A stretch of 64,000 nucleotides of DNA from Psammoneis japonica (lineage: Eukaryota). Positions 16,112-60,299 of the stretch are shown one piece after another. A program made the translations under genes and the position numbers. Location: NCBI GenBank assembly GCA_008632985.1, contig QPGO01000142.1:1-64000 (forward strand), given 5' to 3'. Below the pieces are notes generated by a model. The model was not told the DNA's origin. It saw only the letters and a list, made by a program, of their open reading frames with translations, and searched no databases. The number at the start of each line of letters is the position of its first letter. The first letter of the stretch is position 1.

Positions 16112-16169
16112 CGGGGCCGAATGTCTCTCTCTTCAATTTTCAATTCTGCCGCAGTCTTTCAACATCATT

Positions 16170-16170
16170 C

Positions 16171-16205
<35 letters not shown>
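16170..16205 (+). repeat. (CAA)n microsatellite, ~12 units
   Basis: Perfect CAA/AAC run between the bacterial segment and block B. Confidence 0.95.
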
Positions 16206-16214
16206 AACTGGTAT

Positions 16215-24732: not shown

Positions 24733-24944
24733 CTTGCTGTTGGGGTTATTGTTACAGTTTATATGCAAAGATCGAGAGAGACGGTGTTCGTGGCATTGGT
24801 CTCTCTAGAGTTCCGCACTTGCAGGTTTTTGCTGTTGTGTTCGATCTTCGATCTTCCACACTTTCAACTTCGGACGCACTTCGGCCAGATGTTTTTGCGC
24901 GCATTGCTGCGTTCGTGCAATTCTACGTGTCTCTAGTACTTAAT

Positions 24945-34979: not shown

Positions 34980-35010
34980 TCTTTTGCTAGAGAGAGATGG
35001 CATCTATGTT

Positions 35011-35347
35011 GTCGCACCGTCTTAGATTACTTCTACCCGTTCGTTTCCTCATCTAGTCCCTAGCTTTGGAACAAGAAAAACTAGAAGATGTGAATGACGT
35101 AAGGGCAATCCATATGTCGGGGTCGTTGAGCTCTGCAGCATGCCAGTTGTAACACATGCATTTACTTGCAAATCATTAGTAAGTGTCGCGCAGTCTTAAA
35201 TTAGTTCTACCCGTTTCCTCCCCTAGTCGCTAGTTTTAAGAACAAGATAAACTAGAAGATGTGAATGACGAAAGGGCATCTATGTCGGGGTCGTTGAGCT
35301 CTGCAGCATGCCAGTTGTACCACATGCATTTACTTGCAAATCATTAG
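35011..35347 (+). repeat. Imperfect tandem duplication of ~170 bp (35011-35179 / 35185-35347)
   Basis: Both units contain ctagaagatgtgaatgacg...atgtcggggtcgttgagctctgcagcatgccagttgt...catgcatttacttgcaaatcattag. Confidence 0.9.
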
Positions 35348-36986: not shown

Positions 36987-37083
36987 TGAGCTCTGGCACG
37001 AGACACTCGTATCTGCTTCTCAGACAGACAGACACACTCACAGACAGCATAGAAAGATCTCCAACAGAAGCTGAGCTCGGGCG
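36987..37083 (+). repeat. ~100 bp element repeated at 53129-53237, immediately upstream of DRS1
   Basis: tgagctctggcacg...tctgcttctcagaca(g)gacagacacactcacaga...agaagctgagctc present at both positions. Confidence 0.85.
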
Positions 37084-37549
37084 AGTGCACAGATCGGAGA
37101 CCAATGGGAGACAGCTTCCACAATCTGCTTCTGATGCCTTTCTTTGTCAACATTGCACTGCTGAGTTGATGAGCTCTGGGAGTGAGTTTTCACTTGCAGC
37201 ATCTTCCTCTCACAGTGGCATCAGCACCGGCGGCTGTGCACACCCAAGTCACAGCAGGTCTCGGACCCAGCTGCCATCTCGGCAAAGTGGCTGTTTCACT
37301 GTTTGCAGCTCCTCCTTGCTTCTGGAGTGAGCAGTTCGGCCACCCCAATGGCCTCCCAGCCTGGTTTGGATGCTCCTCCAGCTCTCCAGATGTGACATGC
37401 GCGCGGCGGCCTTCGCATGGATTTGATGTCATGTGCTCCAGCCCCACGCGAAACTCCACACAACTGGGCCCACAGAATTCTGCATGCAAGCTCCACAGCA
37501 CAACAATTTAATTGAAAATGCACTCCAGCTCTGGGTGGGATGTCTTGCA

Positions 37550-38090
37550 GCACAGGACTGTGACATTAAAGAAGTTTTTTTCATCTGCTGTGTGCTGCAG
37601 TTGCTCGCACATTTCTGTGCAACACTTGCACAATTTTGTGTCATTTTGCAGCACATTGTCATCAGGCTGTCCACTCAACAACTTTTGACATGTTTTAGAG
37701 TGCCACTCTCTGATGTGTCAAGAACAGCACAGGGCAGGCAAATCTTCAAAAACGTTGAGTGTCAAGAGGCCCAATGTCATCGTGCACAGCTCAACCTGTG
37801 CGCAGGGCTGGAAAGCATCTGACGGAAATGTTTGTCTTCAAAATCAAACAACAGATGACCAAGTTTGTGGCACAACTGTGCCTCTCTTGATGAAATTGTT
37901 GAAAATTTGTCTGCACTGCACCATTCTCAAGACAGTCAAAAGAGCGGCTTTGCAAAAAATGTCAAACACGGTTGAGTGGGTGGCCCAACAATTGCACCAC
38001 AAAATGATGCAAAATTGTGACAAAGTCACAGAAAAATGTGCAATTGCAACATGCAGTGGATGAAAAAAGATTCAGTGTCACAGTCTTGCA
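37550..38090. repeat. Long imperfect palindrome (foldback/MITE-like), centre ~37830
   Basis: e.g. agaacagcacagggcaggcaaatcttcaa (37720) vs reverse complement of ~37899-37927 agaatggtgcagtgcagacaaattttcaa; outer arms also pair. Confidence 0.7.
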
Positions 38091-40282
38091 CCAATTTCTG
38101 ATGATGCTGTCACAGCCATTGGCCTCTCGGCCACCACTGACAGCCTGGCTGCCACTGCTGCAGCTCTTCTGGCCCAGGCTCTTCTGGCTGACAAAGGCAC
38201 AAGCCTTTGCACACCAGAGAAGCATTGTGCTGCACAGGCTTTTGTGCTTTCAGGGAGGGGCACTTGTGTTTGTGCACACTCACCATGCCCCAACCTTGGA
38301 AGGTCAAGGTGATCCTCATGACACTTGCTCTGACCCCATCCCACAGTTGCTGCTGGCCTCAGCATTGCTGTGCTGGGCTCCTCAGTCCCTCAGCCAGAGG
38401 GCTGGTTGGCAGCTCTCACTCTGGGTTCAAGACATGCACCCCCACACCACCAGACTCTTTCTGTCCTGCTGTTGCCATGCACTTTGGGAACAATTCCCTT
38501 CTGACAACCTGGTCTCCCAAGCCACTTGATTGTTGCGTGGCTCCATCTGCAGCATGTTCCTTCAAGGACAGCAAGCTTGCCACTGAACTTGGCTGATGAA
38601 TGTCATTGGCTGCTTTGCACCTGCATGGGCACACATGGGGAGTCATGCCACACTTGCCCAGCATGCAGCAACGCAGACCTCCCTGCTCCTTTGTCGCTCC
38701 CATCTGATCAATCAACAGATGAGGTGTGGTGTGCAGTGCCATGAGTTTTCCAGCACCCACCCTGCTTTGACTTGCCAGTGTGGCAAACCCACGCTGCTGA
38801 TGCCACTTTTGAGCAGCTTCTTGTGCCAGCCTTTCTGCTGTGAGCACTGATGCCACTGGTTCCAGGGTGGCTTTGATGTCCCAGTGCTTGTTGCAGGAAT
38901 GGTTTGCCACAGTTGTTGCCTGCCCCATGGACTTTGTCATGGACTTGATCTCCAGCAGGTCTCAATTTAAGACTGGCCAGACAGAAAGGCACATCCTCCT
39001 CATGCTCTTGTGTTCCTAAAACATTTGTTGAAAAAAGGTGTGCTGAGAACATTCGTGCACCAAACATTTTTTCCTCATTCACATGACCAACTGTCTTGAT
39101 TGTTGAGACATTTTAAAGGCCTTCATTTGTCAGGAACAAGGAGCTGACAAAAACAACACATGTGCAGATGAAAAGCACCTGACAAGTGCTTCCCATCAAT
39201 GTTCACACCTCAAAGTCAACTGTGTGAGCTTCAAGCTGGGGTGTGCTTTTCTGTCTGGCCAACTCCCTGTGCTGCAGTCAAATTCTGTGCAAGAGTGACC
39301 AAGACTTGCACTCTGCATGTCTTGGTTGTAAAGCCAAGGCTCGCAACAGTGTTTGCCTGGTTTGCTGCTGTCTGGACAAGCACCCCACTGAACACAGCTT
39401 TGATCTTCAGCCTCATCACCCTCTCACAGTGCACAAGCTGCAACAAGCCTCAAAATGTTTTGGTCTCAACCCTTTTATGGCAAAATTGGGGGACCTCTTT
39501 CTTGCACAACACTTCCCATGCTGGCTTGCCTGGACAGCCTGAGCTTCCTTGCCTCTTCATTGCTGCACAGGCACTGCAAGTTCAAATGGTGGACACCTCC
39601 ATGAGTGGTGACATTGTCTGTGCCAGCCAAGGGGGGGGCAGTGATGGCAAGGGAATCATGAGTTGGCTTGCCCACTCTTCTGCACCTCCTTGCATTTGTC
39701 ATCTGTGCCCACTTGCACAGTGCACACTTCCCCTTCATGGCAGCCATGACCCAACATGCTGAGTCAGCAGCTTTTGCACCAAACACTCTGCTCAATCTGC
39801 CGCTGCCACCCAGGCAGCCCACCCATGACTTTGCCAGCAATCCTGTTCTCCACGCCACCCTGCAGCTGCTCTTGGTCAGCAACAGTCTCTGCAAAAGGCA
39901 GTGCAGAGCACACCACCCACCTCCTGGGTCCAGCTCGCACCCCAGCACCCCTCTCTTCCACTCTCTTGGCCACACCTCCAATGAGTCAGGCACTGTTTGC
40001 TGACTCTGACTCCCCAGTTGGCCCCTTGGCTCCTCCCAGCCCAGCTCCTCCTCTGATGGCAACTCCTTGGTCCACACCCACCTAAGATCAGCCAGCACAT
40101 TCAGTTGCTGGCACTCCAGCTCCGCCGGCCTCCTCTGCTGAAGACTGGTCCTCACATTGGGGCAACAGCCAACAAACCCATTTGCAGAGAGCCACAATGC
40201 ACTTGCCCACCATCACTTTGGAGTCAATCCTTCCCGGGTCTCTTGGCCAGCACAGCTGCCGCCATTGTCCCAGATGCTTGCA

Positions 40283-40385
40283 AGCTGTTTCCAGCATGGA
40301 TCAACCCAGCCTTTTGCGATGCAGTGTTTGGTCAGCTGTTTCCAGCATGGATCAACCCAGCCTTTTGCGATGCAGTGTTTGGTCA
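40283..40385 (+). repeat. Perfect 51-bp tandem duplication
   Basis: agctgtttccagcatggatcaacccagccttttgcgatgcagtgtttggtc occurs twice. Confidence 0.95.
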
Positions 40386-40499
40386 GTCAGCGGCCATGGA
40401 AGCTGCTCAGTTGATGAGGATTTTTCCAAAGGGAACGGCTCATGACAGCTGTCTCTTCCAGTGCCTCCTTCAGTGCATTGTTCTTTCACTCGGAAGCAT

Positions 40500-40990
40500 T
40501 TCATGGAATTGATGGAGTGGGCCAAAAAGCAAGAACAAGACGAGGCTGTGTTTGTCAAGGATCAGCTTGGGACAACAAGACAATGAGTTGTTTTCCAAGG
40601 CAAAAGCGTTGCATCAAAAAGACCATGACAATGACAATGGCCATTTTGATGAGGACAATGGCCATTTTGATGAGACTTGTTTGGATGGAAAAAAGAGACA
40701 GGATTGCCTCTTGGAGTGTTGTTGCAGTGAGGCGGAATTGGCGACGATTGCAATGACATGTTTGTCAGTGTCACCAAGGGCATGGCAAGAAAAACAAATG
40801 AGATGGCAGAGGAGAAAAAGGCAAGAAAGAATGCAGATAAAAAGGAGTGACAAATGGCCAGCATGCAAAAGAAAATGATGAAGGAGGCTTGCAAAGAAGA
40901 GTTTGTCAGACAAAGCAATGAGGTTGCAGCTGACAACGTTGGCGGAACATCTGTTTTCCGACACTCGCAATCTTTTTTATGTGAAGAGAT
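40500..40990 (+). pseudogene. Mutated, internally deleted copy of LTV1 3' parts
   Basis: Aligns to ~33915-34092 joined to ~34704-34998. Confidence 0.93.
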
Positions 40991-43277
40991 TAAGTTCCAT
41001 GGTGTTGGAAGAGGTTGGCATGGGGAAATGTGTGGCGGGAGAGGTGCGCGAAGCGTGCTTGGGGATGGAGAGAAAAAGGGAGGGCCCAAAGTGCGGACAG
41101 ATGGTTGAGGCAAAGAGTTGGCAACAGAGGTGCTGTTGGGATGATGAAGCAATGGATCTTGGTGTGAAGAGAGATGGTGGGAGAGAGTGCAGCCAAAGTT
41201 GAGGCTGAGGATTTGGGAAGCCCAGAGTTGAGGTGTGGCAGCATGATGGGAAGAGCCAAAGTGGTCCGGGGACAGCAGTTTCCAGGCCATGTTGGAGTGG
41301 CTGAGAAGGTCAGAAGGGGCGAGCAGTGAGTTGGTGAAGGATGCTTGAGAGTTGGAGAAGGGTGGTGGGCTTGTCCAGGGTGGTTTGGGAGGGAGGGGCA
41401 GGACAGAGGCGGATGCAGAAGAGGAGGATCCAAAGAAGAAGACATGAAAATGGTGTCCGATGCCGCCTGGGTGGTCAAAGGTGAAAGGGAGAAGAAAGAG
41501 GCCTGCTTGGTTGATGGCGTCGATGACGTCAGAGTTGGCAGCAGATTGAGTGGAGCAACCAAGAAGCTTGTCCCATGTGCTGCTGAGGTGAACCTTGTTT
41601 AATGGGTTTTCAGGGACAGGCAAACCAGGTGCAGGAACCGGGGGAGCTGGTGGTGCAGCAATGTCAATGGCCAAGAAGTGATGAGCAGATGGGGCGTTGG
41701 GTGGTGCAGAGCCAGGAGTGAGTTGAATGCCAACATTGGCGGGGCGTCAAGGGGGTGGTCAGCGAGAAGGCCGGGTGGTTCGAGACATGCTTGTTGGCAG
41801 GAGAGGCACAGGCTGCAAAGAGGACCTGGGGTGTCAATGATGGCACAGACAGTGTCGCAGATGTGGTTGGACAGCGGGCTTTCATGCATTTTGGAGCATG
41901 CAAAGGCATGATCACCGAAGGGGTCAGGGTGGGTGTGACCACATGGACAGTCGTGTTGGAGCAAGGTGGCAGAGGGATTGCAGGGAGGCGCAGCTTGTGG
42001 AGGAGGAGCAGTGTGAAAAGGTGTGAGGGAAGTCGGTTGGAGGTGGAGGATCAGGAGAGAGAATGTGGGCAAAGGCTTGTTGGAGGAGACAGAAGGGATG
42101 GAAGGGCTGGTTGCATGGAAGGATTGGCAAGGATCTGAGGAAGAGCATTGGTTTTGTGGTGATGAAGGTGAAGGCGTTGAGCAAGGCTGTGCAGGTTGTG
42201 GTGTTCGATGGCATGCTTGAGGGACATGAAGGAGGAGGAGTTGAAGCAGAGGAGAATGGGAGTGTGATGACTGAAGATGTGGCAGAGGGAGAGGGTGGAG
42301 CATGGGTTGGAGACCATGAGCCGAGGGCTGTGGAACGGCTTGGAGGAAGTTTGAAGATGTCACCACCGGTGAGTGGGACACCATGTTGGGTGCAGTGCAT
42401 GGATCTTGTCAGAGAAGTGATGAGAGCTGGGATGGCAATGGCGGAGATGTCACGGTGTCCGACGCTGCCTGAAGAAACGGGTGGGTTGGCAATGAGTTTG
42501 GCAGCTGAGGGGAAAGGGGCAGGATGTTGAGTGAGGCAGGCAAGGAAACGTGGGGAATGGCCGATGATTTTGTCCACAAAGGGTGAAGCCCATTGGAAAG
42601 GAGGGGTTGAAAGGTCGTTAGAGTGCATGAGATTGAAGCATGCAACAGTTGCGAGGAGGTGGGTGACAGAAGGGATGGAGCACTTGTGAAAGAGGGTGCT
42701 TTGTGTTTGTTTGTTGGTGAGGTGGTCAGTGAGGTGCAGGAGGTCTGAGGTGGAAGATGTGGCTTTGTCATGAAGAAAGTTGATGACGAAGGCGCAGGAG
42801 CCAACAGGTTGGCCAAGGAAGTGGACACCAGAGGTGATCTCGGGTTTGATGCATGGGTCGTTGTGAGGATTGAGGAAGGAGAGAGCTTTGGAGAGAGCGT
42901 GAGCGTCGGCAGGCGGGAGGCGGTCTGTGGGGGAGGTGCCGGATGTGGAGGTGAGGATTTTGGTTTTGGAAGTGTCGAGTTTGATGCCAAATTGGGGGCC
43001 ACAAGTGGAGAGGCATTGGAGGAACCAAGGGAGCTGGGTGAAAGGGAGGAAGACATGAGTGTTGTCAATGCATGATGAAGCAGCAGATTTGGAGCGAGGA
43101 GGGAGTCGATGGTGCAGTTCGTCGTTGATGGGTTTGAAGACTTGGGCCAGGACAAGGCAGGAGAAGGCGGGGCTTGGAGGGCAGCCTTGGGTGAAGCCTT
43201 CAGGTTGAGAAAAGGATGACCATCGAAGGCGATGATCTTGACACCAACAGGTGTTGGGGTTTTGGCAGGCCAGAGAT
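40991..43277 (-). mobile_element. 5'-truncated non-LTR retrotransposon with C-terminal restriction-like endonuclease (CRE/R2-like), mutated
   Basis: RT motifs EGFTQGCPPSP and SCIDNT (from YIDD), GIKLDTSKTKI, FLGQPVG; Zn knuckle CPCG...DPFGDHAFAC; AIDI, PFTFDHPGG; interrupts the duplicated LTV1 downstream sequence at gagat|ggcatct. Confidence 0.8.
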
Positions 43278-45037
43278 GGATGGCATCTGTGGTGTCACGC
43301 AGTCTTAAATTGCCTCCACCCGTTTCCTCCTCCAGTCGCCAGTTTTTAAGAACAAGAAAAACTGGAAGATGTGAATGATGCAAGGGCAGTCTGCATGTCG
43401 GGGTCGTTGAGTTCTGCAGCATGCCAGTTGCACCGCATGCATTTGCTTGCAAATCATCAATGCACACCACAAGATCTGGCAGCAGTTCTTCCTGTTTCAT
43501 TTGGGAGCATCTTGTTTGACGACAACATCTTAATCCACAATGAAGCACAGCAGCTCTAGAGTGTGCTTGCAGTGAACCGCATCTTCCTTAAAACCATGGT
43601 GTTGACCTGTGCTTGCTCCACACGCAGCACAACATGCATTCCAAAGCACATCGGCACACTGTCCTCACATTCTCTCCATCATGTGTGTCTGCGTCTGCAT
43701 CACCACGCATGCATTCTGATCACGGGCAGAGCTTGCATTGCAGAGTTAGGATGCACAGCAGGGCAAACTGACTCTGGCATGCTTTTGCGTCCTGAACTTG
43801 AAAGTTTTGTCAGTGATTCGCAGCAGATGCCTTGAACACAGACACAGCACTTCGGATAAAATCATGTCTCTACAGAGAGTTGCAGATGTCACAAACGTTT
43901 GCTGCCACATTGCATTGTTTTACCAACTGCTCTGCATTCCTAGAACAAACCGATCGGGTCGCTTTCTTTTCCTTCCGGCATTCCGGCAACCAAACAGATC
44001 TGGTTTTTCAGAAAGCAAAGAGAAAAAGATGCTCACTCTGGACATGTCCGTGCTCCTCTCCCCAACTTTGGCCAAGACATGCGCCCAAAATGTTGGATGA
44101 ACATGATCACACTTCAAGAGTTGCTGCCCATGCACCTCCATCAAGACAGAGGCCACTGCATGATGACCCATTGCAGCTGCACATTGCAACGCTGTTGCTT
44201 CCTTGATGGAAGTTGCACTCAAATCAGCTCCATGTTCCACAAGCAGTCTTGCCATGTTTTCATCACTGGCAACGTGTGATGCAATGTGCAAAGGCGTTGG
44301 AGATCATTCTCTGTGGCATTGATGCAAGCTCTGTTTGCCAGGAGCTCTTGCGCCATGTCTGTGTTTCCATGGGTCATTGCAACATGAAGCGGTGAAAAAA
44401 CACCATGTGCCGACTTTGAATTTACATCAGCACTGTTCTGCAACAACAGGAGACACATTTCAGCATTTCTGCTCATTGCAGCCATGTGCAAAGGTGTCAT
44501 GGCTAATCCATTGTAAGAGCCACTGTTGTTTACATTCGCTCCACGTGACAATAAAATTTCCATGGCTGACAGATCACAGAATTGACATGCCTTGCCAAGT
44601 GGTGTGAGACCCCCCATCCCATCCATCAAACTGGCTCCAGCATCCAGCAAGAGCTGAAGCTTGACATCTTGATCAGTTGCTTCTCTAGAAAGGATGGCAC
44701 AAAATGTTGGTGTGTGGTAAAAATGGGATCATTGTCTTCGTCCGTTTGGACATTCAGTGTGGCATTCGGGTCTGCTCCATCTTGAAGAGTGCTGCAGACA
44801 TCTTCTGCAGTGCCATGTTTAATGGCCCTGGAAAGAGACCTTTCCAATGTCCAGTTCCACATTTCTTCAATTTAAGCACCGGACCGGAGAACGTCAGACT
44901 GTGCTGCGATTTGACTGTGCTGTCAAGAGAGTTGACACCAAAGTTTGTTGTCTCAATGGTGTGTTGTCAAGGTCAATCGGGACAGACCTCTGCTCTCTGG
45001 AAGTGTGCAGGTGGTTTTGAAAACCCAGTTTCTACAA
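43278..45037 (-). pseudogene. Mutated copy of the ankyrin gene and its flanks
   Basis: Colinear with ~34997-36880, frameshifted, with TA and CG transitions. Confidence 0.93.
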
Positions 45038-46600
45038 CGAAAATGGAAGTTGGTCTTATGAAGGCACTGTGTTGTGACTTTCGTACAACTCAACTAACAC
45101 ATGGTCCCCGAGTGGTCCTGTGGGATGTGGGTGTGGGTGTGGCATGATGTGCGATGACATCATTGCAACATGCCATGCATTGATTGAGTCGTCGGACAGT
45201 CATGCCGCATTCTTGCAAGCATGTTTGTCATGTAAAAACTCCCATCGCACACACAGCACAGGAGGCACCCCTAAATCTTGACTCGCCTGAATGAAACCAA
45301 ACAGACTGTGACACTTTGTGACCTTTCTTGCAACAATGAAAAAGCACATGTCACATTGACTCAACCATGATGATGCCCCACGATTCTTCTCTGGTGCCTT
45401 TGCAGGACACCAGCCCTGTGAACAATGTTGCCACCAACACTGCTGCAAAAGGTGGTGTCATTGTTCCAGTTGTCGTGGGCCTGGCACAAGCAAAATGAGA
45501 TGTCCCACAAACATGTGCTGCACCGATCTCACCCCAACACCTCCCACAGCTTCCATGATGAATGTCAATGCCACACATGTGTTTCAGTTGACCACCATGC
45601 CTGGTGCTGTTGCTCGCACCCTTGTTGCCACAGGTGTGGTTCATGCTGCCATTGTCTTGTGCCAAAAACAGCCATGATGAAATGGCTCCAACTCACACTT
45701 TTTTAAACTCTTGCCCCACCACCTCCCACAGGTGCCACACAATGGGCTGGTGCTCAGTGGATGGGCCCATCAAAACCTTTCTGGTCATGGAATTTGTTGT
45801 TGAAAAGTTGAGGAAATGAAATGCTTTCTGGCACAAGGCTTGAAAAGAGCCAGTTGCACAATTGCAGGCTGAGACTTGGGGGAGAACATGACTCAGGATT
45901 TTCCTGTGACTGCAGGCATTCTTTGTGCACAAGTGCAACATTTGGTGATTTCACATCACATCAAAATGTTTGTGACATGTGAACATCACATCACCATGAC
46001 ATCAAACCACATTCTCCACTTGCAACGGGGTGCTTGCAACTGCTCCATGAGCTGGAAAACATTGAAGTCAGCATGCACAAATGAGCTTCATCTGTCCATC
46101 CATCCATCTGTCCATCATCCTTCCTGCAAGCTCCATCTGACCATGACACTCCCTCGTGCCAATGAGGGCTCTGACTGGTGCTGTGGATGGAGCCAAGCTG
46201 ACGGAGCATTGTCTGTGCAAAGCCTCCAGATCTGGGGTGTGTCTCTCCCTCAAAACAAAATTGCTGTTTGCACAGGTTCAAAAACACTGTTTTTGGGCAA
46301 AGCAACAGTGCTTGGTTGAACTGCTCAAAATGTCATCAACCCATCATCATGCACCACAAGCCTCCAAACTTTGTCTCTCCTGCCAAGAGGTTCAGTCAGA
46401 GCAAGTCTGCCAAGTTGCAGTTTGCATCAACTTTTGCTGTTAAACCAGTGAGTCAATGGTGCCAAACCAGAGCTCCACAAGGCTTCCTCTGTGCTCTTGT
46501 CGTCACACTTGCCTTGGCCACTTGTGTGGCTGTGGTTTGCTTGCAAAGTTGTGTGTGCAAACTTCAAACCAACAATGTGGCAACATGTGCTGCGAGACAC

Positions 46601-46753
46601 TTACAGACTGGCGGCATCGGGACAATCTAACAGATGTCTGAGCCAGATGACAATCGTGTGCTGGATGAGAAAGAAAGTGAGCAAAAGCTCCATGCTGTCT
46701 GTGCCAGTCTGTCCGACAGAAGGGAGTGCACTCCCCATCTCGGATGTCTGTCA
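46601..46753 (-). repeat. Copia 3' LTR
   Basis: Matches 52062-52230; preceded on the minus strand by the PPT. Confidence 0.92.
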
Positions 46754-46893
46754 CCCTCCCCTGATGAGCAATGCAATGCTCAACAAGAAAGAAAGAGACG
46801 ATCCGAATAAAAAGAGAGGACCAGAACAGCAGAACAAAACAAGCAAGACAGAGACACACCCAAGACTCAATCCACAACAAAACCCGATGACAA

Positions 46894-49640
46894 TCAACGG
46901 CAATGTCCCATCAAGCGGCGAGCATGGCGGGAATGGAGTGTCCAACCCACAGCCTTGGTCAGTGCATCAGCAGGGTCAATGACACCCGGGATGTGTCGAG
47001 CGACAATCTTGCCCGCGTCATGCCAGTCTTGGACAGCAAAGTGTTGAACATCAATGTGGCAGGATCGCTCCGCAGGCACCTTGTTGTTGATCATCTGGAT
47101 GGCAGAGGAGTTGTCAATGTGCAAGGGAGCAGGATCACGTTGAGGAAAGCCCAATTCTTCCAGAACCATGCGGAGGCACAGGGTCTGCTTTGCACCAGTG
47201 ACAGCCGCGAGGAACTCAGCTTCCATGGAGCTGGTGGCGGCAATCATTTGCGTGCGGCATCGACAGTCAATTGCAGCACCAGCAAGGACATGCGCGTGGC
47301 CAGCAGCAGAATGGCGATGCCAGAGTTCATTGGCATGTGCCGCATCAATGAAACCAAGAAGTTGGAAAAGGTCGGCAGCACGAGGGAAGTCCTGGAGAGA
47401 TGGATCATCCTCAAGCCATTTGAAATCACGAGGAGGAAGACCGGGATCGTGCTTGGACTTCTTGCACATCAGTCCCAAATGTTTGGTGCGCTGCAAATGC
47501 TTGGCCATGTGCTTGAGTGAATCACAATGAAGCTCAGCCGGGGCCTTGGAAAACTTGGACAAGGTGACAAAGACCAATTCACCCAAAAGAGAACGGCAAG
47601 AGAATCCCTGGGACTCAGTGAGAGCATCATGCTCAGGAGCACCCTCTTCAGGACCTTCGGTGGCACACAGATCAGGAATGCAATCAACCGGAACAGGTGC
47701 AGCCTTGAAATCTGAATCAGACTCATTCGCAGCGGGAGCATCCCAACCATGGGTCTTGAAAACACGGTCAAGGCAGCTGGCAACGTTGACAGCAATGGAG
47801 TCGTCATTTTGAATGACATCAATGCCATCAAATTCAGCAACCAAGCCCAAATGCTTGAAAGGAGGAGTGTCCTCATTGTCCATCTGGAGAGCTTTTCCAA
47901 TGTGGTCGTAGATCTCTTTTGCAATCTTTTCGGAGGGACAAGCAACAGCAAAATCATCAACCTGATGAAGAAGAAGGACCTTGACACCATCACATTCACC
48001 AGAGCAGACACACTTGTCATGAGTGGCATTGCGAAAAAGAAGTTTCGCACCCGTGAGAATCGAGTTGATGTGCTTTTCCCAAAGAACACCAGCTTCATGG
48101 TGACCTTGAAGAGCATGCTTGAGCGGAAGAACACAATGGCGGGGTGCTTTCTTGCCAAATCGCTTTTCACACCAGGTGGCATGTGCATCATCAACAGCAA
48201 TGAAAACTGGCTGTGAAGGACCAGGAGAATGAGTGCAGGCATCCCGAGCATCACCTCCGTAGACTCAACATGACACAGCCGCACTGAGAGCAAAAAACAT
48301 CTTTTCGACAGAGCGTTCCACACACGACGAACAGGTGGAAGTCAACTTGTGCAAGGCCGGCATTGCCGACTTGGAGCCATCACCACATTGCCGAGAATGA
48401 CGTTGTCCATCCGGCTTTGCCATGTGGTCCCAATGCGGATGCACAACATTCACGCCAGGAGGACCATGCACACCAAGGGCATGAAATTGATCCAATTGGC
48501 GGTGCTCGCCTTCTTCCCATTCAGGCCATGTGTCAAGTTTACAAAGCTTGGCACGGGTGAGGCGGTCAAGAGCAGCTTCCTCCGGAGTGAGAGAGCGGGA
48601 GCCAATTGCATTGAGGTGTGCACAGAAGACATCCACAGGGACAGCCTCATCCGAAAAATCATCATCAGGATGGAGAAGGGCTGCAATGGAACGCACATCT
48701 TCCAAAGTGAGTTCAGGAACATGGGAGTCGTCCTCCATGGAATCAGGTTCAAACAACTTTGCTTCCTCAAATGCCTTGTTAAGGGTGCGAGAATCCAATC
48801 GTCGTTCCGGCACAAAAGCAATCTCAAAGGTCGGGATTTCATCATGGAAGACCTGAGACAAGGCCTCTTCAGCATCCGACGGAGTAAAAACTTCACGCTT
48901 GTTGACAGAGACAACGCATGCACTCACAATCTTGTTGTGAGCAGCACGGAGGGAAGAAAATGAGGATGCCGCAGGACTGTGCTGCTTGATTTCCGATGCA
49001 TGGACACGGTCCATTAGCGCACACTGGGAAAATCAAAAACTGCAGGCAGGATCCTTTTGGGGACATTTCATGGTGCATGTGACAGTCGCAGCAAAAGGAT
49101 TCGACGAAGAGGCAAACACAGGAATGGTGGTGTCCTGTGTTTCAGCTGGAAAAGGCTGACCATTTTCCACACGCTGCAAATGGACAGCATTGGGAGGAAG
49201 TTGATCCAAAAACAGGTCATTCATGCCTTCATCGCAGCGCACATGCTTGGCCGTCTTGACTTTGTCAGTCTCAGGATCCCACCACATGACATTCTTGAGG
49301 GTGTTTGGAAGGCAACCAAGGAATGCGCCCTTCTTGGAATTGGTCCGGAAGGCAGCAGAACAAGCAGTGGACCGTTTGGACCATGCTCGACTTCCGAAAG
49401 TCTTCAGAGCAGTAAAATCTTTGACCTTTCCTGCAGCAAGGGTGATGGGTGCCGCATCTTGATCTTTCGCAGGAGTGGCATTCTTGATGCAGAGGCAATG
49501 GTAAAATGCATGGGGCCAGAATCGAATCGGAAGGTTGGCACCAATTAAAATTGCACGAATTGCGTTTTCAACAGTCAAATGTGAGCGTTCAACAGGTCCA
49601 CATTCTAAGTCCCTCCCCTGATTGTGATTGCCAGGGTCAT
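46894..49640 (-). pseudogene. Copia pol remnant (integrase C-part, RT, RNase H)
   Basis: LPIRFWPHAF, FGSRAW, GAFLG, FSCRSLLGEL, GFIDAAHA, SSMEAEFLA, HIDNSSAI, HIDVQHF, PADALTK; frameshifts. Confidence 0.88.
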
Positions 49641-50407
49641 CATCAGGAATCATCTTGGGATCAGGAGTGCCAGCCTTCGTCAAGCTCAAAAGAAGGTCAG
49701 CAAATGACACAGGTGAAAGAGGAGCAGCAGCGGAAGGTGACGAGTCGGTTGGACCCTCTTTCACAGTTGCCCCACTTACAGGAGTTTTTGGATGGGAGGA
49801 GGATGGGCGGCATTGTTCATCCGAACATGACAATGGCCCCAGGAAAAATCCTTCCTGGCCGTGTCAGATTCAAGTGCATCACGAGCATGCTGATCACGTT
49901 GGAGGAACTGGGAGAACCGAGTGAGATGGGTGCGCAGGTGCTCAGCATTGTTCAACACAGGACACTCATGGAACAAGTGGTTGTTGCCACAAACAACACA
50001 TGGACGGTTCTGTGCAATGGCAGGAGAGGACTTGATCCTACAGACACAGGCCTTGTAGACACCATGGAGGGCTTGTGCATCATCATCTGCAGAAACATCC
50101 ACAGTGGCAAGTTCATTCACAAAATGCTCCACAGTTTCCGCAGGTTCTTCCACAGCAGGAGATTCAGTTTCCTTGGGAGGCTCCTCAATCGCTGAAGGCA
50201 GAGTAGAAACTTCATCTTTGGGAAGTGAGTCAAGACCGCGGACAGGAGCTGCAAGAGGAGGAGCAGGCAAAGTGTGAAGACAATGTGGAGGACATTTGGG
50301 AGGGTCCTTGACACGAAGAGCTGGACTGTCCGGTTCCTTGAGAATCGCACTAACAGTTTCAACAATCTTCTTCTGGGGGTAAACTTGTGTTGTTTGTTCT
50401 TGTCTTC

Positions 50408-51859
50408 TCAGGCATCCACTGTTTTATGGTGAAGGCACTCGCCACAGCGGGTGTTGCCAAGAAAGACATCGAGCTCACCAGGGTTGTCAAGAGAGGCATC
50501 AACATTGGACATGATGGCTCGTAGCTGGAGACAGTCTCTGAAAAGAGCACAGCAGCTGAGGACTGCAAGATTGTTTTGGCACAGGTGGCTCTTGATCAAC
50601 TCATGCAGACGCTTCGTCCAAATCGGTGGGATGTCAAAGAGAATCATCTTGACAGCAGCATGTCCATCACCACAGCATTGACGAACAATGTCAGGGCATT
50701 TGGAATCTGCCAGAAAAATTCCAACTTTCTGAATGTGCTGGAAGACAGTCAGTTTCATTTGGTCAAGTGCTGCTGTCATCCGGAGAGGCAGATCATCGGT
50801 TGGATCATTGCCACAGGTGAAACCCCAGTTTCCACCATCCTTGATAAAACACCACAGAGGATGCATGTGTGTGCCACAAGCCGAGGCTTGTTGGGTGACA
50901 GCAGTGTGCCAAGCACGGATTCCTTGAGGAGAGATGTCATCACAAGTGAGAGGGTCACGAAGGAAAGACTTTGCATCCCAGTCAGTGCGGTGAACAAAGA
51001 GAGAACCATCGGCAAGGATTGGATGCTCAGTGCCGTCATCGCAACAAAGGTTTCCAGACTTGTGAGGCACCAGTGATTTTCCGAGCACTTCTTTCCCGGC
51101 TTCTTTGCATTGACAGCGGGCCAGCACATCCTTTGGAAGTCCCTTTGGGTTGAAGGTGTACACAGCACTGGCAGCAGTCAATGAAGAAGCCGCGCCAGCA
51201 GCAGTCATGGCAGACGGTGCAGGAGATGACACCTTGGGAGCAGAGTTCTTCAGTGCGTTTGTCACAGCTTGCTCAAACTGTTTTGGACCAGGCAAATGAG
51301 TGGCCAGGGCCTTGGCAAAGTCTTCAGGAGTGGGACCTGCAGCAGCAACCGGTGCAGGTGCAGAACTCAAAGCAATTGGTGGATCTGGACACGGATCATC
51401 GGAGATGTCATCCCAGCAATCACAACGTCGAAAATGAGGGCTGAAATGGAAACGTAGAGTCCCAACATGCAGATGTGTGGTGTCATCGTTCTCTGAAATC
51501 GCCTTGATCACAGTCTTCTGAAGAGTGCCAAGGTTCAGACAAACCAGGGGGCCTTGAGGAGCAGCCACAAAAAGAGGAGCCTTCTCAATGATTGGTCCGA
51601 TTTGTGCAAGATCTTCAGTCTGGACAGCTTCAGGGATGACAAGATTCTGAACGATCTCATGTCGGAGGATGGCAACAGCGTCGCTCTTGAGGCCTTGAGG
51701 GGCAAATCCATCCAAAAGATCTTCAGGAGCAGGGATCTCATCCAAACAAAGGGCATTCAGGAAAATGTGGGCATCGGGCAAGCGATTGTGTGGGCTGAAT
51801 TCAACCCGTGTCGTCTTGATCTTGGTCAAATCGACGGCGTTTTGATTTTTGTTCACCAT
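50408..51859 (-). CDS. Copia gag-like ORF, mutated
   Basis: First long ORF after 5' LTR/PBS; only one Tyr in 483 aa; downstream knuckle CVVCGNNHLFHEC in the adjacent frame. Confidence 0.6.
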   Translation of the reverse strand: MVNKNQNAVDLTKIKTTRVEFSPHNRLPDAHIFLNALCLDEIPAPEDLLDGFAPQGLKSDAVAILRHEIVQNLVIPEAVQTEDLAQIGPIIEKAPLFVAAPQGPLVCLNLGTLQKTVIKAISENDDTTHLHVGTLRFHFSPHFRRCDCWDDISDDPCPDPPIALSSAPAPVAAAGPTPEDFAKALATHLPGPKQFEQAVTNALKNSAPKVSSPAPSAMTAAGAASSLTAASAVYTFNPKGLPKDVLARCQCKEAGKEVLGKSLVPHKSGNLCCDDGTEHPILADGSLFVHRTDWDAKSFLRDPLTCDDISPQGIRAWHTAVTQQASACGTHMHPLWCFIKDGGNWGFTCGNDPTDDLPLRMTAALDQMKLTVFQHIQKVGIFLADSKCPDIVRQCCGDGHAAVKMILFDIPPIWTKRLHELIKSHLCQNNLAVLSCCALFRDCLQLRAIMSNVDASLDNPGELDVFLGNTRCGECLHHKTVDA

Positions 51860-52061
51860 GGTTGCGTGGGAAAAAAATCAAATTTCTGCGCAGAGCTCTG
51901 GCATGTGTTCTGCGGTGGTCGTTTGATCACAAATCGAGAGGTGAAAAAACAGCTGTGACAATGATGACGATTTCAACGAAGAAAAAGTCACCAAATCACA
52001 CAGGTGGCGTTGCAAAGGAGGAGCACAGAGGAAGAGGAACAGCGTGCTGCTGCTCACAACC

Positions 52062-52230
52062 TTGCGGACTGGCGGTGTCGGGACAATCTAACAGACATCT
52101 AGGACAGATGATGATTGTGTGCTAGATGAGAAAGAAAGTGAGCAAAGGAGAGATCATCGGATCTCTCCATGCTGTCCATGCCAGTCTGTCCGACAGAAGG
52201 GAGTGCACTCCCCATCTCGGATGTCTGTCA
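52062..52230 (-). repeat. Copia 5' LTR
   Basis: Starts TGACAG on the minus strand; followed by the PBS. Confidence 0.92.
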
Positions 52231-53310
52231 GACACAGTTGCGCATGTCTTCTCAACAATCCCAACTTGCCAAATGATTTGCTCTAAAGAGTGAGAACAAC
52301 AAACACATGTGTGTTGGATTTTTTACTGTGCATCTTTGATCTCATCCAGTTGCCATGTCCTTCTCAACAGAAGCTTCAACACATCATCTTTTTCTCCTCT
52401 TTAACACACCCGATTCTCTTGAACTCTCCCATCTCATGACTTGTTCCAACACTGTTGGGGAATCACCTGAACAGAAACATTCAAGGTTTTCAAAAAATTG
52501 ACAGCAAATGTCCCTCCTGTGAGCAATTGCATCTGGAGGTGGCTGAGTGCAGCACGTCATGTCAACGCGTGCAAATGCAGCGGGGAAGTGCTGTGTGCAG
52601 GTGTCTGCGTGTGTGACAGAGGCATCTGTGCAGTGCAAATGTCTGAATGTAAAGAACATTGATCACCAGATGCAGGTGGCCACAGCTGTGATGATGACAA
52701 GGACCATTCAAAAAAAATGCACCACAGACATCAGACGACTCATGGACATGCTTTGAAAAAATTGAAGAGCACACCGACTTTGAGAAAAGCATCCCAAGAA
52801 ACTGCAGAGATGAGAAAAACAATCAATGTTGAGTTTTCCAACCATGAGAATTCAAACAAGTGGCCAAACATTGCCGCAAACAACCCCACAACACGCTGTG
52901 GCATGCGCAACTGTGGCAGAAGAAATCAGAAAGATGTCGGCATTGTTCTTGGACTGGAGAAAGCGGCACCCAGGCGCAAGACGCACAAGGCACCAGGCAC
53001 TTTGCAGATGTCTGTGCAGAGGTGCCAAAGCTAGTGCCAAACCTGGGAGCATCAGCAGGAAGACACTGATGGATGTCGATTTGAATAAAGAACCACACGC
53101 CGTGACATTTCATGTGCACTTGCATGTGTGAGCTCTGGCACGTGGCTGACACTCATGTCTGCTTCTCAGACAGGACAGACACACTCACAGATGGAATCTG
53201 GAATCTTTTTATCTTCAGTAGAAGCTGAGCTCAGGCGCGCCACTCATCACGGGCTCATCTTTTTTTTCCTTTTTTTTTCACACACTCAAACACTACTCTA
53301 GACCCAGACC

Positions 53311-57452: not shown

Positions 57453-58642
57453 TGTGTGGTTGTGATGCAAGTAAGTTGTTCAGTAAGATAGAATGCTCAC
57501 CAGGATTGTATTATTTGTAAGTCGTAAGGTGAGTTTGGCGTTTTCAGTTTGGCTGTTGGCAGCGCACATGATGTCGGCAGTCGGCACGTCCCTGCGCTTT
57601 CGAAAGATGCATGAAAGCATTCGGGAGTGTTCCTACGTACAGTTAGTACGGTAGAAATGTATCGGGGGTAGGGCAGCGAAGGACGGACGCTCTGCCGTTT
57701 GTCGGTTCGTTCGTTGTCTGGTGGGTTGTCACGCTCCTGCTCCAAGTGGTGCTGGTGCAAAATGCAGCACCAACATGATGTGTCCACTGCTGTGTCCCGA
57801 AAAACCCTGTGGCTCAGCCAGACAAGCGCTTCTTGTGTCCTGCGTGCAAGAGCCAGCAGCTGTTTGTGCTTTCAAATGACATGTGGTTGGCTTTCCAAAG
57901 GGTCAGAAAAGGTGCTTGTTCCTTCTTTTGATTGCTCTGTGATCTTTCTGTTTTTTCTGCAAGCCACCTGTCTGGTGCCAATTTGCCCCAGCACCAAATT
58001 TTTCAAGCACAACATGTGCAAAAATGACTGTCCTGAGCAGCTGATGCTGCATCAAACATGAGTGGCCAAGGGCCAAGTTCAGCCACAGTCAGAGCACACC
58101 TTGGGCGTGTCACCAAAATCCTTCAATTCAGAAAGATTTTTTTTTCACTTTGTGGAGAGAATGTCTGGCAGGCACATTTTGATCAATGATGTGACTGTGG
58201 CAGCACAAAACCAGAAACCAATGGTTTGCAGGTGGACCTCTTTTCCATGTGCCTTTTCACTTTGCTGGCGTGCATGACATTTGCGCACAATCTCTCAATT
58301 CATGCAGATGATCTTGCAACACGCAAAATGCGCGCCAAGCAAACCGAAAACCAAGCGTGGAGCTCAGCTTGCTCAAAAAACAACAAGCACTTTTATGTGC
58401 ACAAAACACAAACAATGCAAAGCCTGGCAATGTCTGCAACATCCTCATCACTCACAGCATCCCGGTCCCGGTCATCATCAAGAAGGAGCACAAAGAGGAT
58501 TAGATTGGACCCCTGTGTCGAAATGGACAAGAAGAAGAAGAAGCGTCAAGGGAAAGAACGTGACTGCCATGCACTCCTTGACCTCCCTCAGAACTCCATC
58601 ACGTAAAAACAAACAGAAGATCATGACAATGAAATTCACAAA

Positions 58643-60296: not shown

Positions 60297-60299
60297 CTG

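Follow-up and report, generated by a model that had tools for sequence, protein, structure and literature searches.

The window analysed here, a 64,000-nucleotide stretch of contig QPGO01000142.1 from the diatom Psammoneis japonica, carries an LTV1 gene, an ankyrin-repeat gene and a helicase ORF among five blocks of DNA that have lost nearly all of their TpA dinucleotides [Table 1]. The MCM matches with a named organism were all from diatoms (55-71% identity), except for one weaker insect match. The largest block contains repeats without assignment (37.1-40.5 kb), a mutated host-derived copy, a LINE inserted into that copy and a Copia element, and the direct repeats that bracket it share 77% identity in a self-comparison. 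The LINE sense strand is C-rich (G 42% and C 13% on the plus strand), and its P/S/T/L/H-rich composition is common to its homologues, of which a full HMMER search returned 307; the closest relatives of the Copia element are diatom Copia elements (Nitzschia, Cylindrotheca) at 53% identity. A protein domain search of the first block found nothing recognisable, and among the 102 ORFs of all blocks there was one significant domain match (Copia SH3-like) and two weak ones below threshold. The targets within the blocks are Copia, LINE and the host-derived duplicate, and most of the block DNA is without recognisable origin.

Table 1. Features of the 64-kb window, in order of position (strand "." where the feature has none)
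Feature	Position	Strand	Remarks
TpA-depleted domain 1	6411..14042	.	CpG obs/exp 0.115, the most decayed of the five
Third TpA-depleted domain	15923..17477	.	TA 0.08, CpG 0.52
Fourth TpA-depleted domain	24942..26040	.	1.1 kb, intergenic, very sharp edges
LTV1 gene, 3' part in source	ORF 33348-34979	+	Pfam LTV
Intact source segment	33913..36880	.	Pfam LTV and Ank matches, self-BLAST
Control tandem duplicate, 170 bp	35010..35347	+	genic DNA, 88% identity; 10 TA/TA and 5 CG/CG retained
Ankyrin-repeat gene in source	ORF 35757-36686	-	Pfam Ank
Bracketing direct repeat (~100 bp), left copy	36987..37083	+	adjoins ankyrin gene start
Main TpA-depleted domain	37051..53209	.	holds the original finding; dense TAs end at 37050 and resume at 53210
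Mutated copy of two LTV1 3' pieces	40500..40976	+	source 33913-34092 and 34705-34985; 613 bp between the pieces absent
Degenerate LINE-type reverse transcriptase element	40977..43268	-	inserted into host copy; weak RVT_1 match; tblastn match 41000-43294
Mutated copy of intergenic DNA and ankyrin gene	43269..45037	.	source 34986-36880; 1509-bp alignment, 78.7% identity
Degenerate Ty1/Copia retrotransposon	46600..52230	-	Pfam RVT_2 and SH3_retrovirus
Copia LTRs	46600-46753 and 52061-52230
Copia RT/RNase H	46894-48264
Copia integrase SH3-like region	49036-49863
Bracketing direct repeat, right copy	53129..53237	+	~220 bp upstream of helicase ORF (start near 53455)
Fifth TpA-depleted domain	57670..63850	.	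may extend beyond the window end

Sharply bounded blocks of TpA depletion

From the dinucleotide composition, the five blocks, together 33.4 of the 64 kb, have a TpA obs/exp of 0.06-0.08 against 0.46-0.60 in genic DNA, and across this half of the window TG and CA are in 1.6- to 2.0-fold surplus. CpG obs/exp is 0.115-0.52 inside the blocks against about 1.0 outside, while the GC content of blocks (0.46-0.51) and genic DNA (0.47-0.52) is equal. The density of TA flips within at most 50 bp at positions 6410, 24941, 26041, 37050 and 57669, and within the 64-kb window the loss of TpA is restricted to these discrete blocks, the rest of the DNA being normal. The initial annotation had placed a hypermutated feature at 40500-45037 and proposed a sliding map of TpA and CpG obs/exp; this map bears out the depletion and gives it sharp bounds, and the feature is real, its extent being far larger, namely a block of about 37051-53209 (TA obs/exp 0.079 and CpG 0.366 over 37001-53250) plus four more.

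The letters themselves are supported by contigs from a public sequencing run (k-mer depth 38-66), which show 0 differences from the window over 40807-41219, 42092-42501 and 42664-43690; the run is possibly the source sample, and its platform and library type are off record. Independent metagenome assemblies contain related Copia elements with the same TpA signature. A base-calling artefact on modified DNA, the refutation foreseen by the initial annotation, is largely ruled out by these exact matches together with the repeated signature. An artefactual or non-targeted cause in the broader sense (base-calling or polishing error, RNA editing before integration, biased gene conversion, or a genome-wide bias under relaxed selection) could draw on the uncertain record of the run and on a TA frequency that is somewhat low even in genic DNA. 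It is nevertheless extremely improbable given the read and metagenome support, the equal GC of blocks and genes, the retention of TAs in unconstrained intergenic source DNA, an A>G rate of only 4-7% outside TA, and the post-integration divergence of the Copia LTRs with both strands hit, as detailed below.

Direction and context of the substitutions

The mutated host segment (LTV1 3' end and ankyrin gene) is a pseudogenised second copy, and it can be compared base by base with its source; the counts below come from the four aligned pieces of 33913-36880 versus 40500-45037. The 80 TA sites of the source have become 34 CA, 18 TG, 8 AA, 4 TT and 5 others, with 11 remaining TA, so that 86% of the TAs are lost and 52/80 are converted to CA or TG. 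At the 111 source CG sites the copy has 36 CG, 36 TG, 29 CA and 10 others (65/111 converted). The earlier manual count over 34705-34985 versus 40696-40976 proved exact, both for TA (5/6 converted, 4 to CA and 1 to TG) and for CG (12/20 converted, 8 to TG and 4 to CA, with 7 kept and 1 other). TA is destroyed and not created, as the initial annotation had held: its retention is 0.14, compared with 0.86 for TG and 0.84 for CA, and the change rate in the remaining contexts is 1-13%. In its noncoding parts, the direction is presumed to be the one seen in the coding parts of the duplicate, taken as analogous. The transition is also confined to TpA, as had been claimed, with A>G at 20/81 in TA against 7/176 in AA, 12/173 in CA and 6/137 in GA (Fisher p=2.5e-7), and T>C at 35/80 in TA against 3/134, 5/157 and 12/158 in the other contexts (Fisher p=6.9e-19). 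The changes at CG are enriched likewise (C>T p=2.9e-10, G>A p=1.6e-12).

The retroelements carry the same mark. The LINE has a TA obs/exp of 0.03, and conserved Tyr is replaced by Cys at 3/3 columns. Of the 15 Tyr columns that 40 Copia homologues conserve, 8 read Cys in the window copy, 4 His, 2 Tyr and 1 Phe, while the control columns are retained (Glu 11/11, His 14/14, Gln 8/8); the Tyr>Cys and Tyr>His outcomes both lie on one coding strand. The LTRs of one element are identical at integration, and here 16/154 positions of the pair are mismatched, 13 of the 16 in YR dinucleotides, including 4 double differences of CA<->TG, with a rate estimate based on just the 3 non-YR mismatches. These double differences indicate that the mutation acted in place, after integration and on both strands.

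Both strands are hit site by site and independently. In the duplicate, 34 TAs became CA and 18 became TG, and runs tests for strand gave z = -0.7, -0.7, +1.1 and -0.5 in environmental pairs and +2.0 in the window, and this lack of strand clusters argues against a deaminase acting along single-stranded tracts. Editing of the APOBEC3/ADAR type takes place before integration and leaves clustered, strand-specific marks. The window resembles them in being a case of hypermutated genomic copies, such as deaminase-based restriction of retroelements leaves behind, and differs in that the hits fall on either strand without forming clusters, the two LTRs became different once integrated, and a host segment that was not retroposed is affected just as much. 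Editing of RNA or cDNA before integration is contradicted by the LTR differences, the Cys and His outcomes on one coding strand and the absence of clustering.

The context of the conversion extends beyond the dinucleotide. Among TAs surviving in the blocks, TTAA (4.1x) and CTAA (2.2x) are enriched and ATAT (0.10), ATAC (0.12) and GTAC (0.25) are depleted (chi-square p = 7e-19). In five environmental pairs, conversion was 86/94 at RTAY, 23/61 at YTAR and 179/248 at mixed sites (Fisher p = 1e-12), and per strand it depended on the +1 base (C 0.50, T 0.44, A 0.24, G 0.21). The preferred motif is 5'-T-A-Y-3', the A being the base that changes; read from the opposite strand, this is equivalent to a change of T in R-T-A. 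Transversions of A<->T at TA are mildly enriched as well, both in the window (12/161 vs 18/935, p = 5e-4) and in the environmental pairs (32/932 vs 103/5043, p = 0.012).

Targeting by domain and the separate decay of CpG

The initial annotation had described the process as RIP-like and targeted to repeats, a description that this window does not support. The source segment (LTV1, intergenic DNA and ankyrin gene) is normal, with a TA obs/exp of 0.43-0.92 and CpG of about 1, and its noncoding 780 bp stand at 0.92; the functional first copy is thus untouched 3.5 kb away from the mutated one. The tandem duplicate in genic DNA, at 12% divergence, keeps its 10 TAs, and the other duplicates in genic DNA, all of them <200 bp, are spared too. 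Block DNA at 38.1-40.6 kb has a single-copy-like read depth, yet its TA obs/exp is 0.02-0.07. The sparing of the source and of the short genic duplicates is indicative that targeting follows the domain, and it tracks a sharply bounded domain rather than duplication or foreign origin.

Fungal RIP is an irreversible inactivation of transposons in place, by dinucleotide-specific point mutations that are transitions only, and in these respects the window is similar. RIP depends on a RID-type DNMT and a premeiotic stage. Its change is C:G>T:A, mostly CpA>TpA, which creates TpA where the blocks lose it, and it mutates both copies of a duplication; neither RIP nor 5mC deamination can remove TpA, a point of the initial annotation that stands. 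A homology-triggered, RIP-like process in which selection alone saved the intact source is very unlikely, even though the mutated host segment did arise by duplication, transposons present in many copies make up the remaining identifiable targets (read depth 600-1000 at 41.0-41.8 kb versus about 55 in genes), and diatoms carry RID-related DNMT4 enzymes, described without a known function (PMC9998398). It would have to account for the sparing of the whole 3-kb source, noncoding part included, for the depth-normal depleted DNA, for the unmutated genic duplicates (<200 bp), for the opposite direction, and for the hypermutated viral region of Bigelowiella natans, reported as single-copy (bioRxiv 10.64898/2026.01.13.699255).

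The decay of CpG and the hypermutation of TpA are separable, contrary to the single process implied earlier. TA obs/exp is uniform among the blocks while CpG spans 0.115 to 0.52, and environmental copies lose TA without directional loss of CpG. In one such pair (L075 vs L062), 59 TAs correspond to 10 TA, 25 TG and 17 CA with 0 reverse changes, and CG changes number 8 forward and 12 reverse; in another (L055 vs L019), 169/275 TAs are converted against 27 in reverse, and CG changes are 97 in each direction. Arg columns are retained in the environmental copies (15/15 and 12/12). These copies were found through conserved peptide patterns, by which mutated copies are under-sampled, and the contigs carry no assigned host taxon. 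Loss of CpG is faster where it is flanked by A/T (TCGA 0.55 vs GCGC 1.51). The CpG>TpG/CpA change is a second, slower process, most simply explained as deamination of 5mC in methylated diatom transposons, methylation of which has been described (PMC9998398). Such deamination explains the substitution, why it is limited to transposon blocks and why A/T-flanked sites are lost faster; it does not account for the removal of TpA, which is faster, more uniform and separable.

One dual-specificity, ADAT2-like deaminase acting on both A and C is a highly improbable source of the two signatures, although they share blocks, amphioxus ADAT2 acts on C at TCG and on A in DNA (PMC10354150), and Trypanosoma ADAT2/3 is cited as a deaminase of C in DNA (PMC10354150; bioRxiv 10.64898/2026.01.13.699255). 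Against it, CpG conversion in the duplicate shows no preference for a 5' T (T 12/24, A 20/32, C 18/29, G 15/26), the extents of the two changes are uncoupled among blocks, and at several borders the CpG-depleted zone starts 60-180 bp inward of the TA edge. The retained Arg columns and non-directional CpG changes of the environmental copies point the same way, as does B. natans, for which the mutations given in the preprint hold no C>T excess (bioRxiv 10.64898/2026.01.13.699255).

A known precedent and candidate mechanisms

TpA-specific hypermutation of DNA has so far been reported only in a 2026 preprint on one chlorarachniophyte. The initial annotation knew of no described system with this spectrum, and exactly this spectrum, TpA->TpG/CpA, was measured by Mettrop et al. 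in integrated viral DNA of B. natans (bioRxiv 10.64898/2026.01.13.699255). There, 230 of 231 single-nucleotide mutations in two viral regions (302 nuclear mutations in total) consisted of A>G or T>C changes at TpA, and mutation-accumulation lines put the ongoing, episodic process at about 1e-7 to 1e-6 per site and generation (bioRxiv 10.64898/2026.01.13.699255). Both cases share the restriction of A:T>G:C to TpA, local action amid otherwise normal DNA (in the diatom, within the 64 kb), the sparing of some copies or regions, and a long-term footprint of TpA-depleted, CpA- and TpG-enriched clusters, which in B. natans are enriched for reverse-transcriptase and DDE domains. They differ in that B. 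natans belongs to Rhizaria and the diatom to Stramenopila; that the viral region has a TA obs/exp of 0.45, the window being far more saturated (0.06-0.08 over half its length); that integrated viruses are hit there, and retrotransposons and a host-derived pseudogene copy here; and that the preprint describes no G:C>A:T excess, whereas CpG decay co-occurs in the window. The known case being from B. natans, the diatom window adds a further lineage to TpA hypermutation. The words 'context', 'trinucleotide', 'CpG' and 'diatom' were absent in a term search of the preprint text, and what the window newly adds to it is the T-A-Y motif, hits that do not cluster by strand, the proof from LTRs of action in place and the separability of CpG decay.

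Our main reading, to which we assign a probability of about 0.8, is that the silent, transposon-filled DNA of this diatom undergoes, in place, a TpA-specific A:T>G:C hypermutation targeted to a chromatin or silencing domain, with CpG decay as a separate matter, and that the process is of the B. natans type with a saturated footprint. What the data demonstrate is the signature with its direction, its action in place after integration and on both strands, the bounds of the domains, the extended motif and the independence from CpG decay; that the blocks are silent and that the process serves in genome defence are inferred. In such a process, TA in silent DNA would turn into TG or CA depending on the strand hit, strand by strand; targeting would follow the chromatin or silencing domain up to edges of at most about 50 bp; and everything within the 37-53 kb domain (host pseudogene copy, LINE, Copia and repeats) is in fact mutated equally. 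The window would then represent the long-term, saturated footprint, with 5mC deamination at CpG possibly running beside it at a slower pace.

Both routes that the initial annotation had put forward, an adenine deaminase or a modified thymine, fit the spectrum, and the sequence alone separates neither from the other. As for the lesion itself, we tentatively propose that adenine is deaminated by an enzyme of the TadA/ADAT kind, with an HxE-PCxxC deaminase domain, that is brought to silent chromatin, and give this somewhat less than even odds. In the tRNA target of TadA/ADAT, U precedes the edited A and C follows it (U-A-C); this resembles T-A-Y, in which C is the most favourable +1 base, and the inosine produced from A by TadA and ADAT2-3 is read as G. 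We know of no natural deaminase of adenine in duplex DNA. The amphioxus enzyme BjADAT2 is, according to PMC10354150, the one ADAT for which deamination of A in DNA has been demonstrated, and it differs from the T-A-Y on duplex of the window in acting on hairpins or single strands, where it prefers A in GAA and C in TCG. Conceivably, though we consider it rather doubtful, diatoms and perhaps much of SAR including Bigelowiella possess a chromatin-guided adenine deaminase acting at 5'-T-A-Y-3' in silenced duplex DNA, an 'anti-RIP' defence that erases TA (Tyr codons, TATA elements, TAA/TAG stops) in parallel to but independently of cytosine methylation, which would make it the first natural duplex-DNA adenine editor.

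The mutated base could instead be T, if a TET/JBP-like or other enzyme modifies the T in R-T-A of silent chromatin (5hmU, 5fU or base-J type) and the product mispairs with G, giving T>C, seen as A>G on the opposite strand. The strand symmetry at a palindromic dinucleotide and the lack of strand clusters are as expected of a duplex modification like CpG methylation, the motif reads equally well as R-T-A, and the blocks coincide with presumed 5mC domains, 5mC and T both being 5-methylpyrimidines. Dinoflagellate 5hmU has a preference for TpA; counting against this route, 5hmU is only weakly mutagenic. The excess of A<->T transversions at TA would be easier to explain by an abasic intermediate formed at A than by one at T, which is a weak inference. 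Dinoflagellates replace 12-68% of T by 5hmU according to a review, in which the TpA preference did not turn up, and the titles and abstract openings of 15 papers naming both diatoms and 5hmU contain no report of 5hmU in a diatom. Altogether we judge this route unlikely.

The presence of this saturated footprint in a diatom, and also in Copia elements from the environment, suggests a widespread process in a group with a large share of ocean photosynthesis, where TpA hypermutation would shape genome composition, the death of transposons and the decay of pseudogenes. The T-A-Y motif, the strand-independent hits, the sharp edges, the independence from CpG and the host-derived targets narrow the search for the enzyme, which, if it is a natural adenine deaminase on chromatin DNA, would be relevant to genome-defence biology and base editing. 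The blocks are without TAA and TAG stops and so give rise to long false ORFs, by which repeat annotation and gene prediction are confounded.

Composition and borders of the depleted blocks

In the sliding-window map of TpA and CpG observed/expected (obs/exp) ratios that the initial annotation had proposed, the 64-kb window was bimodal at 1-kb resolution, with TpA of 0.34-0.92 and CpG of about 0.8-1.4 in the genic stretches, and TpA of 0.02-0.16, CpG of 0.00-0.70 and TG/CA of 1.3-2.2 in the remaining stretches. Segmentation yielded five depleted blocks with a sum of 33.4 kb [Table], the normal stretches having TA of 0.46-0.60 and CpG of 0.98-1.10. A stretch of 400 bp (51-450) was flagged by the segmentation too and was left out of the block count, CpG being normal there. 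The conversion of TpA to TpG/CpA, originally noticed in one duplicated segment, is confirmed and far extended.

Features of the window, with obs/exp ratios of the depleted blocks
Feature	Coordinates	Strand	TA obs/exp	CpG obs/exp	Basis or description
Depleted block	6401-14100		0.063	0.115	Segmentation
Depleted block	15901-17650		0.08	0.52	Segmentation
Depleted block	24951-26050		0.059	0.318	Segmentation
Depleted block	37001-53250		0.079	0.366	Segmentation
Depleted block	57651-63850		0.06	0.396	Segmentation
Source of the duplicate: LTV1 gene 3' part, intergenic DNA, ankyrin gene (-)	33913-36880				Pfam
LINE-type RT insertion	40977-43268	-			307 matches, full HMMER search
Ty1/Copia RT-RNase H ORF	46894-48264	-			Profile match
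Direct repeat bracketing the 16-kb block	36987-37083 and 53129-53237				~100 bp, 77% identity

The block edges are sharp. TAs were spaced 5-40 bp apart up to positions 6410, 24941, 37050 and 57669, with a gap of hundreds of bases beyond each, and they were abruptly back at 26041. At several block borders, the onset of CpG depletion lay 60-180 bp inward of the TA edge. Biased gene conversion was ruled out as the origin of the blocks because their GC content is not raised. TAA and TAG (TTA and CTA on the opposite strand) are nearly missing from all depleted blocks, so that long stop-free ORFs abound there in several frames. Stop-to-stop ORFs of 90 aa or more number 150, mostly inside blocks, and such long false ORFs are a pitfall for gene prediction. 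Pfam searches on 102 stop-to-stop block ORFs gave a Copia SH3-like match, two weak chance-level matches and nothing else, and tblastn of 144 Copia and LINE proteins revealed no element beyond the Copia and LINE already known. Two TA-depleted segments (37253-38086 and 41006-41839) had a contig depth of 340-1066 vs about 55 in genes; they are present in many copies at 90% identity or more, which is indicative of some amplification or duplication after or during depletion.

Mutation spectrum and extended motif

By self-BLAST, the source segment is repeated at 40500-45037, where the copy is without 613 bp of the source (34092-34705) and is interrupted by the 2.3-kb LINE insertion. Of the two, the copy is the one that was mutated, the source being a conserved gene of normal composition. 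The manual count initially made for 34705-34985 (5 of 6 TA and 12 of 20 CG converted) proved exact. Over all four aligned pieces, the 80 TA sites of the source became 11 TA, 34 CA, 18 TG, 8 AA, 4 TT and 5 other dinucleotides, and the 111 CG sites became 36 CG, 36 TG, 29 CA and 10 others; TG and CA were retained at 0.86 and 0.84, respectively. A>G changes were found at 20/81 TA sites vs 4-7% in other contexts and T>C changes at 35/80 vs 2-8% (Fisher p = 2.5e-7 to 6.9e-19). The initial reading of direction (TpA destroyed) and chemistry was right; 52 of 80 TA sites became CA or TG, and A>G is enriched at TpA over other NpA contexts. A Pol-eta-type WA signature was ruled out by AA>AG changes at background level (7/176). 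A<->T transversions were mildly enriched at TA, both in the window (12/161 vs 18/935, odds ratio 4.1, p = 5e-4) and in environmental pairs of a depleted metagenome locus with its less-depleted relative (L055, L075, L070, L045 and L046; 32/932 vs 103/5043, odds ratio 1.7, p = 0.012), possibly a sign that the adenine passes through an abasic stage.

We compared the 138 surviving TAs of the blocks with 1125 TAs of normal window DNA and found the survivors enriched in TTAA (4.1-fold), CTAA (2.2-fold) and CTAG (1.6-fold) and depleted in ATAT (0.10), ATAC (0.12), ATAG (0.23) and GTAC (0.25), with a chi-square p of 7e-19 for the difference in context. Conversion in five environmental pairs reached 86/94 at R-TA-Y, 23/61 at Y-TA-R and 179/248 at mixed sites (Fisher p = 1e-12). 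When each strand was counted separately, conversion depended most on the nucleotide following the mutated A (C 0.50, T 0.44, A 0.24, G 0.21) and little on the one two positions 5' (0.28-0.45), which gives the motif 5'-T-A-Y-3', or R-T-A if the T is mutated.

The same changes can be read in the proteins of the main block. The best relatives of the Copia ORF among the matches listed were from Nitzschia and Cylindrotheca (53% identity), and an alignment with 40 of at least 120 homologues gave 259 conserved columns. Of the 15 conserved Tyr columns, the window Copia keeps Tyr in 2 and has Cys in 8, His in 4 and Phe in 1, the changes to Cys and His being exactly TAY>TGY and TAY>CAY; the 16 Arg columns hold 10 Arg, 2 His and one each of Gln, Trp, Cys and Val. 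Ala now stands in 7 of 16 Thr columns, which is consistent with NNT|ACN>NNT|GCN, and Glu (11/11), His (14/14), Gln (8/8) and Gly (19/20) were retained. For the LINE, a word-based homologue search with its ORF gave no match, and its matches come from the full HMMER search; aligned with 47 of 150 listed homologues, the element has Cys in all 3 conserved Tyr columns and His in 2 of 5 Arg columns. The strand composition of the LINE is extreme (G 42%, C 13% on the plus strand). Strand-specific hyperediting as its cause was ruled out because Pro, Ser, Thr, Leu and His abound to an equal degree in the homologues, so that the G skew is a property of the LINE family and is unrelated to the hypermutation.

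CpG decay behaves as a second process, apart from TpA loss: CpG obs/exp varies more than 4-fold between blocks while TA obs/exp stays uniform, the borders of the two depletions do not coincide, and environmental copies have lost TA with no directional CpG loss. CpGs flanked by A/T were lost faster (TCGA 0.55 vs GCGC 1.51). A 5'-T preference of CpG conversion, as in the TCG motif of the amphioxus deaminase BjADAT2, was not seen in the duplicate. As methylation of diatom transposons is documented (PMC9998398), deamination of 5mC would be the simplest cause of the CpG decay.

Environmental copies, authenticity and known systems

When metagenome contigs were scanned with patterns taken from the Copia alignment, 80 loci came out with TA obs/exp of 0.12-0.84, from which depletion frequencies are not readable because the retrieval patterns favour intact copies. 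Five loci (L075, L070, L045, L026 and L055) were below 0.3 and L046 was at 0.35. Twelve loci, the six lowest in TA and six of the highest, were compared at the protein level, L026 and L068 being excluded from the Tyr counts as out of frame. Conserved Tyr columns had become Cys or His in 12/15 (L070), 16/20 (L055), 7/7 (L045), 6/8 (L075) and 10/19 (L046) cases, and five high-TA controls retained Tyr in 10/11, 11/13, 10/11, 17/20 and 17/20; Arg columns were all retained in L070 (15/15) and L075 (12/12). Eight pairs of depleted loci and their closest less-depleted relatives were compared at the DNA level. From L062 to L075, 59 TA became 10 TA, 25 TG and 17 CA with no reverse changes, and CG changes were 8 forward and 12 reverse; from L019 to L055, 275 TA became 63 TA, 93 TG and 76 CA with 27 reverse changes, and CG changes were 97 in each direction. 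The weakest pair, L026 vs L007 (21 forward, 17 reverse), involves a relative that is itself partly depleted. Runs tests for strand clustering in environmental pairs found none (z = -0.7, -0.7, +1.1, -0.5), and no LTRs were found in the four environmental loci searched. We take the environmental contigs to be diatom-type on the named relatives of the Copia family only. TA depletion was uneven along single contigs (L026, 0.45 to 0.07; L007, 0.25 to 0.9; also L073), which suggests a block structure like that of the window in other organisms too.

The possibility of a base-calling artefact, raised initially, was checked against contigs of a public run of unrecorded library type, possibly from the source sample itself: 40807-41219, 42092-42501 and 42664-43690 matched with 0 differences (k-mer depth 38-66), the last contig spanning the junction of insertion and duplicate. 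Given these uncertainties about the run, the same signature in unrelated metagenome assemblies is the stronger argument against an artefact. Differences of reads and contigs from the window were in mixed contexts and partly from paralogous contigs (40 of 250 examined). Within 33500-36879, another run from this sample (X2) is limited to the two genes, where it has 5 and 11 differences from the window, and may be a transcriptome or another allele; X2 and a further run (X3) do not cover the mutated region, which carries no weight as evidence of silence.

The window is not Bigelowiella DNA. Its genes are long uninterrupted ORFs, without the numerous introns of Bigelowiella natans genes. The organism-named matches of the window MCM protein were all diatom (55-71% identity), bar one weaker insect match. 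The initial statement that no such system had been described has been overtaken by a 2026 preprint on B. natans (bioRxiv 10.64898/2026.01.13.699255), in whose mutation-accumulation lines two integrated viral regions hold 231 of 302 nuclear single-nucleotide mutations, 230 of these 231 being A>G or T>C, every one of the 230 at TpA. The rate is about 6e-7 per site per generation, a subset of the lines being affected. That genome has 124 clusters poor in TpA and rich in CpA+TpG, in which RT and DDE domains are over-represented, and an ADAT2-like deaminase was proposed as the cause; the main text has no mention of diatoms, CpG or extended context, and its supplementary Table S2 could hold context data. 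In the literature searched, we found no diatom report of TpA hypermutation, RIP-like mutation or 5hmU, and the consulted parts of two diatom papers (PMC2806351, PMC4504042) held nothing relevant. We therefore file the window as a diatom case of this very recently described TpA hypermutation, with new mechanistic constraints. Our preferred mechanism would be deamination of adenine at T-A-Y by an enzyme active in silenced chromatin. BjADAT2 deaminates C at TCG and A at GAA in hairpin or single-stranded DNA (PMC10354150), and is a precedent for the chemistry but not for the motif. The main rival is a thymine modification at R-T-A, the form that the motif takes if the T is mutated; a TpA preference of dinoflagellate 5hmU found no confirmation in the parts of a 5hmU review consulted.

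Timing, targeting and borders

The Copia LTRs (46600-46753 and 52061-52230), identical when the element integrated, have 16 differences in 154 aligned positions, 13 of them in YR dinucleotides (4 CA<->TG doubles, 3 TA/TG and 2 CG/(CA or TG)). This indicates that each LTR was mutated independently in the chromosome, and excludes pre-integration editing of RNA or cDNA. Outside shared YR dinucleotides there are 3 mismatches in 80 positions and the TA obs/exp of the element is 0.07, values which suggest, roughly and from small numbers (3 mismatches), a TA mutation rate of the order of 100-fold over background. Both strands are affected in the duplicate (34 CA vs 18 TG, binomial p = 0.036), where a runs test found no same-strand runs (z = +2.0).

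Duplication alone is not the trigger, and the "RIP-like" targeting of the initial annotation was wrong. The source is untouched down to its noncoding part (TA obs/exp 0.92 at 35-36 kb); among genic duplicates, all shorter than 200 bp, a 170-bp tandem duplicate of 12% divergence within the source retained 10 TAs and three more have changes in both directions. Block DNA at 38.1-40.6 kb has a depth of 52-99, like that of single-copy genes (about 56-60), and yet a TA obs/exp of 0.02-0.07. The layout would fit an old tandem duplication of the host segment, after which transposons may have invaded the second copy and led to its silencing, the mutated domain presumably stopping at two active gene starts. 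The repeat bracketing the 16-kb block adjoins two gene starts, that of the ankyrin gene and that of a DEAD-box helicase gene, and possibly represents a piece of bidirectional promoter that was duplicated and marks a chromatin border. In each copy of this repeat, mutation is apparent only in the domain-facing half.

Two observations concern the borders of other blocks. A D-Ala-D-Ala ligase ORF (15182-16132, minus strand) matches the N-terminal Pfam domain over no more than the final 34 domain positions, and the ORF begins with ~70 codons in DNA that is poor in TA, normal in CpG and adjoins the block at 15923-17477; the gene may be cut off by this block or run on into it. Just outside the 6.4-14.0 kb block, 14410-14756 holds duplicates of three rearranged fragments (corresponding to 4279-4460, 5775-5858 and 4813-4900) of the gene at 4164-5780 (minus strand), with normal TA content.
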